DNA of 64,000 nt from Carcharhinus longimanus (Eukaryota): the NCBI GenBank assembly GCA_030264375.1, contig JASCQW010000139.1, forward strand, positions 6,339,225-6,403,224, in the 5' to 3' direction. The notes under the pieces are model-generated. The model had not been told where the DNA came from, did no database searches, and saw only the letters and a program-made list of their open reading frames with translations. Position 1 is the first letter of the stretch. The number at the start of each line of letters is the position of its first letter. Position numbers and translations under genes: made by a program. Shown here piece after piece: positions 20,566-56,748 of this stretch.

Positions 20566-20638
20566 TCGTCAGATAGCCTACCAACTGTTGTCGCCAAATG
20601 AGCTAACAGCCAACACCAGTCTGATAAGCTATCTCACA
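20566..20638 (-). ncRNA. MIR21: microRNA-21 precursor hairpin (5p mature 20609-20631; 3p about 20571-20593)
   Basis: Minus strand UAGCUUAUCAGACUGGUGUUGGC (fish-type miR-21-5p), loop UGUUAGCUCAUUUGG, 3p arm CGACAACAGUUGGUAGGCUAUCU; the arms base-pair; same strand and downstream of VMP1 as in other vertebrates. Confidence 0.98.
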
Positions 20639-21753
20639 GAATGGCAAAATGATGGAGAAGCTGGATGTGACAGAAAATCTATACCTGGTACCAGAGGGTG
20701 AAAATGAAATCATGAGAACCTTACCTCATTCTAAATTACCATGAACACCTTTTGAGCACAAAATATTGGCTTGTAGTTTGGAAAAAAACTAATATCTACA
20801 AGAATGAAATTCTGTTACATATCTAATGTATTTTCTTATTTGGACAAAAGCACCAGTAATAGAATTCCAGTTTGCTGTGCCAGGAAGTCACAGGTTTAAA
20901 TCCTACACTTTTCAGAGATTCAAATTCTCAAGCCCTCATTGTACAAGTTTGCTTAGTTGTTGGTCAGGCTGTAGCAATGCAGCGTGGTGGTTGGTCCCAC
21001 TGTATGGAGCATATTGTTAGCTGATCTGAGAGCGCAACAATGATCATTAATCCAGTCTCGCTGGAGAGAGACGATTAACGTGGTCAAGATTGTGCACAGG
21101 CATCCAAAAAGTGTTAAAGAGATAAATCCAACTTTGTGCAACAGAGTACTGAAAATCCCTCATTTGCAGTTTTTAATTTTCACAAAATGTACTTTTGGCT
21201 TTCCAAGGATTCAAATCACTTACCTAACACCCCAGGCACTAGAAAACATTGTGAAATAATTCTCCAATTGGAATTATTGGAATAGAATAAGACACAAGAT
21301 CTGTACAGGCCACTTACATCTCCTCATGTGATTTTAATGAGGTACACCTTTATCATGAATAGCTATGCATAAACACTCATATTTTTCCTTAATGGACCAA
21401 TTCCCCAAACTCCAATGGAAATGCTTGATGGAAAGATGGTAGAGTTACAGATCCTGTCAAAATGACTCTGTGGGCCAACCATCTGTGGAATGCTGAGCTG
21501 TGTTACCAGAGTTGGAAATTGCTTTGGACGTATTAGTTTCTTTGACTTGACATCATTGGTCCACTGTGTGCTGAATGTCAGTGCCAAAACACTATTGATG
21601 GAAAAGCCCACATGCAGATCAATCATGACTGAAATTGTAATCTGGAATCACCAGTGCACTGGTAAAACAGTACCCTGGAATCATATCAATTCATATTAGT
21701 TAAATTCATTTACTTTGATGAAAATCCTAAAAAGATAATACCTTAGTTCCAAT

Positions 21754-23403: not shown

Positions 23404-23547
23404 TCATTTCATTTTCTCTTCAGTGTATTTCTGTGACTGAATCCGTTTGGCGTAGCTCTGAGCCATGGAATTAATGATGGAAAGAATGAAGTAGCACACC
23501 ATGATGATGACTACTTTTTCAAAGATCCAAGACAACCAATTTTCACT
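23404..23547 (-). CDS. VMP1: VMP1 last coding exon (exon 12, 144 bp including TGA); final TM helix and C-terminal tail
   Basis: cccccattag|AGT...; translates [47 protein letters not shown], matching the recalled VMP1 C-terminus (GENWLSWMFEK...[23 protein letters not shown]). Confidence 0.97.
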
Positions 23548-25459
23548 CTAATGGGGGTGGGATTTCAGGGAAGAAAGAGAAAAACAACATAAAAAGTATT
23601 TATTAAAGACTGTTTAATCTGAAATCAATAGCAGACTGCTAGCAGCTTAATTGGACTAACATGCACAGTTAGGAACAATTCCTTTTTTTGTTGTAAAATC
23701 AAAGAACCGAAGGATGGAGAAGTATGTGTGCATCGGGAGCAGAGATTGGGGTGTTGCCTGGATGGGGAAGGATTGAAGGACTCTCCACAGATTAAACACG
23801 TGTGTAGGAGGAATAAAGCAGGGGAAATATGTTTCTATTCATATTCAGTGTCAAAAACTATGCTTTATTAACCTAGCAAATGGCATAAAAGTGCCCTCCA
23901 GATACTCTTAATTCACATATCCAATTAACCAAAATTCCAATTGTTTAATTTAATATTTGATCAAAGGACGGATTTGTTGCTGCAATTTGAGATGAACAGG
24001 GTATAATGTTACTAAAATATTAGCTACAGATCTAGCTGGCTGTTGGACAAATCAAGCACATCAATATAGACACAAGCATAAAATTAATTTGTGCTACGAA
24101 TTGCAATAAATTACATCAGTCCTGAGTCATTGAAACCTTCTCTCCACATTTCTAATCTCTCTGCTTAATTCTGTTTAGTTGGTATTGATGATTTCCTGAG
24201 GCAGGGTAAATTCATTTTGGGAATTGAAACAAGTTTCTTATTTTATGGTTCCCAACAGAAGTTTGGTCAAAGATTTTTTTTTATATTTGTTCACAGTGGT
24301 GCCTCTGGCCAGGTCAACTTTTATTGTTCATCCCTAATTGCCCTTGAGACTGTATTAATGAGCCAATAGTTGATGCTCAGGATAGCTTTTTAAAGCTGGC
24401 AACAAGGTGACAATCTATTGGCCAGTACTGGAAATTTATGTGTCTTTTTAACAAAGACAAAAAAGACATTGGAAGCCAGTGCAGCTACAGGAACTAGATC
24501 CTCACTGTTTTACTAATGTTAAGTGTGTTCTTTCACTCCACCGAGGCCATTAAAAGTGAGCAAACTAAAATCTGGCAAATCTGACAGTGCAGTGGGGATC
24601 CCCACTCAGGAAGAAACAGATGGGGATTTAGTTCACCACCTGCTCTTTCAGGCACGCATATAGCACTTCCCGTCGCTGGTCAACTTAGCCTGTATTGGCA
24701 ATGCTGAGGTGTCTACTGATCTGCCTGCCAGCTGTTCCATCTGGAAATTTTAAAAAGCATGAAAAGCCAGAAAATAGTCTGAATCAAAAAGAGAGAAAAT
24801 CTTTCAACAACTCAATTAAACTGACACACACACGCCTACACATGCAATCCTTCTGTACTAATCTGGCACCAGGATCACCATTTTGCTATAGCATTAAGAG
24901 TTTGATTTAGATATTCTGCATCTACGTCAGTGCTGAAGCAATGGCTTTGAGCCAAACCAAAGTACTCTTGTTAAGATACTAGTGNNNNCTTGTTTGATAT
25001 GGGCTTAACAAAAAAGATAAAGCTTTTGTGCATTTTGAAATAGTTTGTCAGATACTGGAAAATACCGTAATTATTTAAAGAGGGAAGGAAAATGTCTTTT
25101 CTGAAGTCTTTTTCATATTTAAATTCCATTTATTAATATCTTCAGAGAGGGTAAGTATGTGAATATTAACAAACACTTGGCTTTACTTTTCATCTGGATC
25201 ACCAGCAGATTCAAATCACCAGTATTTTCAGCACAAACAGCAGAAAAGCTTTTTATATTTAAAACCTGATTAAATGTATTACAATAATTAATAAAATAAC
25301 TGGAAACTGATCCTTCCAGTTTTAACCTTCAGACCTCTAACAGGGTCTTTTATTTTCATTGTTCAAAAATTAAATTGGTCAAAGAGTAAAATTCACAGAA
25401 TACTTTTACATCAGCTTTCACATAGCGTGCAAACTGTGTTGTAGAATCCTGTGTCTATG

Positions 25460-26377: not shown

Positions 26378-26480
26378 CGCTTCTACTGCATCTCCAGACT
26401 TGTGGTGAAGCTTGGCTTTCTGGGCCTCCAGGTATTCTCTGAAGGGTTTCTGAAGTGAAGGGCCTAAGCTTGGAATTGCC
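26378..26480 (-). CDS. VMP1: VMP1 coding exon (exon 11, 103 bp)
   Basis: cacacag|G GCA...GCG|gtaag; translates [34 protein letters not shown] (visible inside ORF 26363..26560); phase 2/0. Confidence 0.97.
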
Positions 26481-26694
26481 CTGTGTGGGTGAATTCCAAT
26501 TCCACGAGTATATTTGGGAGGAGGGAAAAACACAAAGGTAACACAGTTAATTTTACTCACCTATCGAAGCGCTGCATAAACTTAAAACAAAAGTTAAAAA
26601 GTAGTTAAAGTTGGTGCAACTGGTGCCGCTGCTCATCATGATTAAGGTAGGAGCAGGAGTATGAACTCAAAGCACTGCGCTGGTAGACCACAGT

Positions 26695-26920
26695 ATCTCA
26701 AATGAATGATTCTCACAAGCTGGCCCCATATATCACCGTCAGTTCCTGTAAAAACTGGTTTGAACTGATCAATAAGGAAGTGAGTCGGTGTTGTGTCATT
26801 GCCAGCTAAGAAAGAAACTACACTCCCACCCCATTTATGACTCGCCCCCGCAGCTCCTGGAAGGGTGGCCACTTCCGAATATACCGGGCCTTATAAGGAA
26901 ATACAGCATGTCATTTTTTT
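26695..26920 (-). promoter_or_regulatory. Intronic pri-miR-21 promoter (miPPR-21-like) at the 3' end of VMP1 intron 10
   Basis: CArG box CCTTATAAGG 26889-26898; ETS CGGAAGT about 26871-26877; AP-1-like TGACTC 26838-26843 and TGACACA 26792-26798; ETS GGAAGT 26776-26781; STAT-like TTACAGGAA 26743-26751; TATA-like GATATAT 26728-26734; Inr-like TCATTC about 26704-26709. Position and sequence resemble the recalled human miPPR-21. Confidence 0.85.
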
Positions 26921-27639
26921 TTTACTGTTAAGAACCCACTAGCAATTTTCATAGTACCCCTGCCTCCTTTTGCATCTCCTCCTTCCACCATCCCCACCAG
27001 CACCCCCCACCTCCCAATACGACTCAGCAGTTGGTGATTAACCAAGAAACAAACAAGGTACTATGAACCTTATTGTAAGATTAGTTCACATTTATTTCCC
27101 CTATGGCACAATATACTCTTATTGAAATGAGAGGGAGTGTAAGCCGCACCTACTGCACTCGGCATACAAAACTCTTGAATCATGCAATGACACCAGATAC
27201 TGCGTATTTTATTAAGTTCTTGTACTCTCAGTGCAAAAGTTAGTTGCAATAGGAAAGGTGTAAAACTGGGTAATGGGGAAGGAAAGAAAAAGGAGGGGAT
27301 CCCAAGGAGATAGCAAATTTAGGTTAACACAAAAATCTATTTTATTTTGCTATAAACCATGAGTTAGCACTTCTAACGAATGACTTTATATTGGCACTGG
27401 AAGGAATACACTTTGAAACATATCTCTATAAAGTGATTCATTTACTGAGATACCACGCTAATGGTTAAAAGATCTTTCAAAATAGATCTGAACAAATTTT
27501 CTTCTCACCTATAAATGCAAGTAGGATCTTAAAAGCTAATAGATAATAGAAATAGATTAATACCTTCAGATAGTTCATGGAATTTCCAATTCGTACAAGG
27601 CAGGTTAACTACTGACTGCTTTAATAAAAATGTGGTCAG

Positions 27640-47256: not shown

Positions 47257-47318
47257 CCTATCAAGGACACCATCTGTTCCACTATGTGCTTGCTGAACAT
47301 TATAATAACAAACAGTTT
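47257..47318 (-). CDS. VMP1: VMP1 coding exon (exon 10, 62 bp)
   Basis: cccacag|AAA...GG|gtgagt; translates KLFVIIMFSKHIVEQMVSLIG; phase 0/2, in frame with the neighbouring exons. Confidence 0.96.

Positions 47319-56607: not shown

Positions 56608-56748
<141 letters not shown>

Follow-up and report, generated by a model that had tools for sequence, protein, structure and literature searches.

A strong splice donor below the miR-21 promoter in shark VMP1 is probably that of a non-coding pri-miR-21 first exon, likely sterically exclusive with exon 11

The window analysed here, a stretch of 64,000 nucleotides from the shark Carcharhinus longimanus, is the VMP1/miR-21 locus, and its minus strand carries the 3' part of VMP1; the features described below are all on that strand. 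Exon 10 of VMP1 (47257..47318, 62 nt) is the usual upstream partner of exon 11 (26378..26480, 103 nt; acceptor at 26481/26480). The coding part of exon 12 (23404..23547) contains 47 codons and a stop codon at 23406-23404, and its acceptor is also the one used by the donor at 26561 that is the subject of this work. The peptide encoded by exon 12 shows 100% identity with basking shark VMP1 and 94% with that of several other sharks and rays. The mir-21 hairpin (20567..20638; Rfam RF00658, 75.5 bits, E 4.7e-16) is located downstream of exon 12, as it should be for an orthologue of pri-miR-21. The stretch from the promoter to exon 11 gave a single match in a search of its own genome. Elsewhere in the locus, VMP1 exon 9 ends at 56632/56631 with the GC donor CAG/GCAAGT, and intron 9 looks to be of the GC-AG type; intron 11 contains at 24303-24349 a 45-nt repeat piece which is present in many unrelated contigs of four of the sequencing runs used below; and about 100 nt upstream of the hairpin (region 20748-20726) an AG accompanied by a pyrimidine run is located at 20748 and a motif resembling a donor near 20727.

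A conserved promoter block (26705..27068), the orthologue of miPPR-21, is located in intron 10, with a STAT3-type site at 26751 and a TATA-like element near 26737. Ten cow/human promoter motifs from supplementary table 1 of PMC6070548 were placed on the window. The five proximal motifs, whose spacing is conserved, each project the start (+1) to 26704, within intron 10, next to the putative start at about 26705 proposed in an initial annotation made from the sequence; the projected start gives a first exon of 144 nt. Three distal motifs are present in order, with offsets, the -247 motif matches several places, and the -118 motif was not found in the window. A search of metagenome contigs with the promoter pattern yielded 0 stretches. 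The first exon of pri-miR-21, likely non-coding, occupies 26561..26704 (144 nt), its 3' end being defined by joins to exon 12 in two runs (X1 and X2). The idea that it is a decayed duplicate of exon 10 was rejected, as the similarity was not significant (reached by 139 and 499 of 2000 shuffles). In both exon 10 (47273-47250) and the first exon (26577-26552) an ATG stands 17 nt before a near-identical donor context, in an alignment that is not significant.

The first exon ends in a strong 5' splice site, TAG/GTGAGT (26555..26563, exon end 26561), which is separated from the exon 11 acceptor by a gap of 80 nt. A consensus donor AG/GTGAGT with this exon end and at this distance had been reported in the initial annotation, and all of it was confirmed on the minus strand. 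Of the nine positions of the U1 consensus, the 26561 donor matches 7, and the donors of exons 10 and 11 each match 6. The motif AGGTRAGT occurs 7 times in 122,256 bases, both strands counted, corresponding to about 0.008 per 144 nt, so that the donor is above chance. Upstream of it there is a U-rich run (26581..26610) with an AG at 26582-26581, a possible acceptor of a 20-nt cassette.

Use of the donor was assessed in eight of 23 candidate runs, all in the form of Logan contigs and derived from five related organisms (A-E). The eight runs are presumed to be RNA, although they are not recorded as such, and exon-exon joins at exon 11 in all eight show splicing. Contigs drop rare variants, and the counts of joins given here represent contig sensitivity, in relatives of the window's species. 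Loose ends at 26481 were present in seven of the eight runs. The first exon was covered in five (X1, X2, X4, X10 and X16), with no cover in X3, X11 and X19. In X1, a joint with GT..AG ends runs from 26561 to 23547, the beginning of exon 12, skipping exon 11; this joint carries the flag 'between: not known'. In X2, a loose end at 26561 carries the start letters of exon 12. The two observations bear out the view of the initial annotation that the donor below the miR-21 promoter is a real splice site. The donor-to-exon 12 join, which is out of frame, was thus found in 2/8 runs, both from organism A and from one study. An unspliced contig extending across the donor into exon 11 was found in all five runs covering the first exon. 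By contig depth, a rough measure, the spliced form reached 9.5 and 12.8 versus 34.3 and 23.9 for the unspliced form. A join of 26561 to 26480, that is of the donor to exon 11, was present in 0/8 runs among the joins listed, at contig sensitivity.

The positions at which contigs break also bear on this point. With words of 31 letters, the unspliced contig is expected to start at 26452 if there is no path from the donor to exon 11 and at 26453 if there is such a path; the start was at 26452 in all five covering runs. Likewise, the branch at the donor is expected at 26561 when the partner is exon 12 and at 26560 when it is exon 11, and it was located at 26561 in X1, X2 and X16. Both breakpoints agree with the absence of a donor-exon 11 path. 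No branch at the donor was seen in X4. In X10 (organism D) a branch was located at 26558, three bases off the donor, perhaps reflecting either another acceptor with the same three first letters or a shifted donor. Within the sensitivity of contigs, the donor either splices to exon 12 or stays unused, and no listed join links the first exon with exon 11.

Further details of the contigs concern the ends and the variation of the first exon. Contig ends at 26694 (X4), 26697 (X10), 26702 (X16) and 26689 (X2), coming from four studies, fall 2-15 nt short of 26704 and are a weak hint at the transcript start, contigs being unable to show a start as such. Contigs of lower depth above the projected start (26694-26986) were observed in X1 and X2 and represent either a second upstream start or intron 10 pre-mRNA. 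By subtraction, about three or more substitutions in X16 (organism E) fall within 26562-26590, the 29 nt before the donor, a density above that elsewhere in the first exon. A recursive splice site at the AG/GT was considered and is not supported: no exon 10 loose end at 26561 was found among the rows listed, in contigs that may miss intermediates, and two nearer AGs stand behind the pyrimidine run.

The sequence of the 80-nt gap suggests why the donor and exon 11 are not joined. Among 19 adenosines scored in the gap, the one at 26547 is the best match to U2; it is the predicted distal branch point of exon 11 (26546..26550), at +14 from the donor and -67 from the acceptor, in agreement with the remark in the initial annotation that the likely branch point is very close to the donor. 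No branch motif with the conserved U at -2 was found between +23 and +70 of the gap. The predicted branch point is followed by a distal polypyrimidine tract (26516..26545), and an AG-free zone extends from +5 to the exon 11 acceptor. Next to the acceptor itself, pyrimidines make up 10 of 21 positions at exon 11 versus 15 of 21 at exons 10 and 12. RNA folding of the region, run with no shuffle control, gave nothing useful. A distance of about 50 nt is given as the steric limit for joint recruitment of U1 and U2 in mutually exclusive exons (PMC7969005, which refers for alpha-tropomyosin to Smith and Nadal-Ginard 1989; this and the other papers are cited for the parts of their text that were available). 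The donor-to-exon 11 join would be avoided because the predicted branch point is only 14 nt behind the donor, far below this limit. U1 bound to the donor could not act in one spliceosome with U2 bound at so close a branch point; the first exon and exon 11 would thus be sterically mutually exclusive, and the donor would go to exon 12.

Evidence for the age of this arrangement was obtained from a scan of a metagenome collection, which returned 80 loci. Only one of them, L003, reached a vertebrate intron 10 tail; another, L002, matched exon 12 and mir-21, without exon 11. L003 carries a mammal-type VMP1 end, near pangolin entry P0125, in which the intron 10 tail is unspliced and exon 11 is joined to exon 12. 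Its exon 11 is preceded at 73 nt by a strong donor, and it further has a U-run at the corresponding place, a single consensus branch motif, located at +19, a pyrimidine tract in distal position, and the motif CCCAAAT in common with the shark. In an alignment of the shark and L003 gaps, the score of the whole gaps was reached by 2 of 3000 shuffles and that of the cores without the splice-site ends by 84 of 3000, which is modest. Of the 28 distinct AG-ended segments compared, L003 is the one with a donor of such strength 50-120 nt before the homologue of exon 11; the remaining 27 are invertebrate-looking, and many of them are near duplicates. In L003 a stop interrupts the VMP1 frame three codons upstream of the donor; neither ATG nor CTG occurs in frame, and no start follows the stop at any length of the U-run. 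Its exon-12 frame ends in a stop one codon ahead of the donor, and in the shark, too, that frame is closed by a stop. As L003 keeps the signals yet closes the VMP1 frame, the RNA signals appear to be conserved and the coding head not, with deep conservation resting on one mammalian contig. A similar donor is presumably present in human.

Taken together, the donor at 26561 is probably an old, non-coding first-exon donor of pri-miR-21, likely sterically exclusive with exon 11. The miR-21 transcript would start in VMP1 intron 10 with a first exon of 144 nt that splices to exon 12 or remains unspliced. The donor has likely been retained for the U1-dependent support that a strong first 5' splice site near the promoter would give to transcription and to read-through as far as the hairpin, over 6 kb, and would thus act on RNA output and not on protein. 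The strength of the first 5' splice site drove expression in a screen of human reporters, with U1 as the likely agent (bioRxiv 10.64898/2026.09.28.754465). Fifteen AATAAA/ATTAAA hexamers are located between the start and the hairpin, so that protection of the transcript by U1 is plausible. Beyond this, we propose tentatively, and with more doubt than confidence, that a lock consisting of donor plus branch point, kept from shark to mammal, makes the nested miR-21 first exon exclusive with host exon 11, so that the inducible miR-21 promoter would gain a strong U1 site which would set the output of miR-21, and truncated VMP1 would be prevented.

A different role can be imagined for the donor, namely that it mainly regulates splicing of the host, either with U1 beside the branch point tuning the inclusion of exon 11 or with a 20-nt cassette (26580-26561) truncating VMP1, its use from the intronic promoter being a by-product. 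We regard this as unlikely. Distal branch points are known to go with exon skipping (PMC5378181), the stretch before the donor offers an AG as well as a pyrimidine run and branch motifs, and either product would terminate no later than in exon 12, without the tail, all of which would suit such a role. However, neither an exon 10-to-exon 12 join nor a branch at the cassette acceptor appeared among the rows listed for the eight runs, and specifically no contig branch was present at the 26582-26581 AG in any of the five covering runs. The length of the cassette differs in L003. Moreover, the spacing of exons 10 and 11 is plain in 94 of 108 long homologues, and an insert was found in 0/13 cartilaginous-fish entries inspected (P0026, P0028-P0038 and P0076).

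It is still less probable that the donor has no selected role at all. According to this reading it is a cryptic, low-level leak into exon 12, and shark and mammal share it by coincidence or merely because branch and pyrimidine elements are conserved. The comparison covers two vertebrate lineages, the similarity of the gap cores is modest, and the majority of promoter-derived contigs are unspliced at the donor, as a leak would have it. Nevertheless, a donor of this kind occurs in the window at a rate of about 0.005-0.007 per 41 nt and in 0/27 of the other upstream segments, yet it is found at -80 in the shark and at -73 in L003. The depth of the spliced form, by the rough measure given above, is also not negligible in comparison with that of the unspliced form.

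The initial annotation had raised the possibility that pri-miR-21 encodes an 87-aa C-terminal fragment of VMP1. Its ATG (26575..26577) has a weak context, with T at -3, and no counterpart in L003. When the first exon was joined in silico with exons 11 and 12, this ATG did give 87 aa with one hydrophobic segment, and an upstream ATG (26637..26639) in good context, with A at -3, opened an out-of-frame ORF of 31 aa on the same hypothetical form; as descriptions of the sequence, these statements were correct. The forms actually observed predict different products. The ATG at 26639 opens an out-of-frame ORF of 27-28 aa on these forms, the upstream ATGs give 26-27 aa when exon 12 is joined, and the ATG at 26577 yields 17 aa in that case and 6 aa when the gap is retained. 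On the exon-12 form all three ATG products are out of the VMP1 frame, the frame entering exon 12 stops at the donor itself, and an internal ATG of exon 12 could give 32 aa, behind three ATGs. In X4 (organism C) the ATG at 26639 is changed to ATA, and an adjacent ATG remains. An in-frame ATG is at chance level, being found in 20% of 5000 shuffles and in 565 of 2333 real 144-nt windows (20-24%). With every observed form outside the VMP1 frame, there is likely no 87-aa C-terminal VMP1 fragment. The initial annotation had itself named a lack of reads for the donor-to-exon 11 junction, or of conservation of the ATG or donor even in related sharks, as evidence against its proposal. The junction is lacking in all eight runs, a result at contig sensitivity and in relatives, and in mammal-type L003 the ATG and frame are absent and the donor is kept.

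Other sources of a coding head were also considered. Translation of the unspliced form from a GTG at 26560 was judged unlikely, since this near-cognate codon has T at -3, stands behind three ATGs and is closed in L003. In the retained gap (26560-26481) the VMP1 frame is open for 27 codons from the GTG into exon 11. F-rich open frames before exon 11 were seen in bird entries P0132 and P0140, in pangolin entry P0125 and in two similar entries. Judged from these sequences, such frames hint that the distal pyrimidine tract is widespread, and the open frame is likely a by-product of the AG-free tract. At least 145 VMP1-like proteins were retrieved by three protein searches (the third giving the best 120 of 272), and no head similar to the proposed one was found in 145 of them. 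A search with the read-through frame produced 1 hit, and a search with P0001 produced 25 hits, with unrelated heads. Entries P0001-P0007, P0081 and P0147 are teleost predictions comprising only VMP1 exons 11-12, with varied heads and some altered tails, and are possibly remnants of a second vmp1/mir-21 copy.

That a minor or induced share of transcripts joins the donor to exon 11, with ATG 26577 yielding an 87-aa membrane-anchored VMP1 fragment, is very improbable: although the ORF is intact in silico and includes a hydrophobic segment, rare joins can escape contigs, teleost predictions P0081 (exactly 87 aa), P0001 and P0004 carry heads of 5-6 residues on exons 11-12 and are the sole outside evidence in favour of a microprotein, and the tail is the reported Beclin-1-binding region of VMP1 (residues 386-406; PMC3542764), the junction is missing among the joins listed for all eight runs, the predicted branch point stands at +14, the chance-level ATG has a weak context and two ATGs upstream of it, L003 has a stop and neither ATG nor CTG in frame, none of the 145 retrieved proteins has a similar head, and the teleost heads are mutually unrelated, with P0081 and P0004 having cluster mates with other N-termini, as prediction artefacts would be expected to show. 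A C-terminal VMP1 fusion fragment has been reported to be non-functional for autophagy (PMC11011780), and one may speculate that this is a possible reason for keeping the frame closed.

If the proposed lock of donor and branch point is real, steric exon exclusion would insulate a nested microRNA gene from the reading frame of its host, and steric mutual exclusion would be extended to a pair of host gene and nested gene. A used and deeply conserved donor would represent a new cis-element for the output of miR-21, which is among the most studied microRNAs and whose primary transcript is reported to lack splicing at its 5' end, and would be a target for variants, for perturbation of U1 or LUC7, and for antisense oligos. 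The negative result suggests that the VMP1 microprotein is likely a reading artefact, of a kind perhaps common to gene predictors.

Human pri-miR-21 is described as unspliced (PMC3413119), and the two variants of cow pri-miR-21 differ in intron 11 only (PMC6070548). In the available text of these papers, mammalian pri-miR-21 with miPPR-21 resembles the shark transcript in promoter motifs, their spacing, the start in intron 10, and passage through exons 11 and 12 to the hairpin. Cow variant 2, which retains the intron 10 tail and has exon 11 spliced to exon 12 (PMC6070548), corresponds to L003 and likely to the main shark form. In contrast, the available parts of PMC3413119 and PMC6070548 make no mention of a first-exon donor skipping exon 11. 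A search of mostly open-access literature turned up no paper dealing with this donor or with a peptide from pri-miR-21, the available parts of PMC3134876, PMC4808046 and PMC7656758 contain nothing bearing on the donor, and GENCODE or RefSeq may already list a spliced form. A spliced first-exon donor at a locus described as unspliced may apparently have been overlooked, a suggestion we make with some hesitation. The product foreseen in the initial annotation would resemble miPEPs and the C-terminal VMP1 fragments of RPS6KB1-VMP1 fusions (PMC11011780, available text). Unlike in miPEPs and microproteins from alternative promoters, the required junction was seen in 0/8 runs and a conserved start was not found here. 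With intron-mediated enhancement and U1 action at the first 5' splice site, the locus has in common a strong major-class donor, here 144 nt from the start, in a U-rich neighbourhood; the reporters of that study, as far as its available text describes them, contain efficiently (fully) spliced introns in coding reporters, unlike this locus (bioRxiv 10.64898/2026.09.28.754465). The closest parallels in mechanism are exons 2/3 of alpha-tropomyosin and exons 4a/4b of OGDH, which, in the available text of PMC7969005, share with the shark gap a distal branch point, in the shark a predicted one, less than 50 nt behind a donor, a downstream pyrimidine tract and an AG-free zone. The donor-to-branch distance is 14 nt in shark and 19 nt in L003, both as predicted, versus 25-41 nt in OGDH (PMC7969005). 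In contrast to these exons, the upstream exon is here the first exon of a nested microRNA gene and not an internal coding exon, the pair is not frame-equivalent, there is no significant similarity to exon 10, and most promoter-derived contigs keep the gap unspliced. The first exon and exon 11 thus form a pair which would work like sterically exclusive exons but is not counted as a member of that family.
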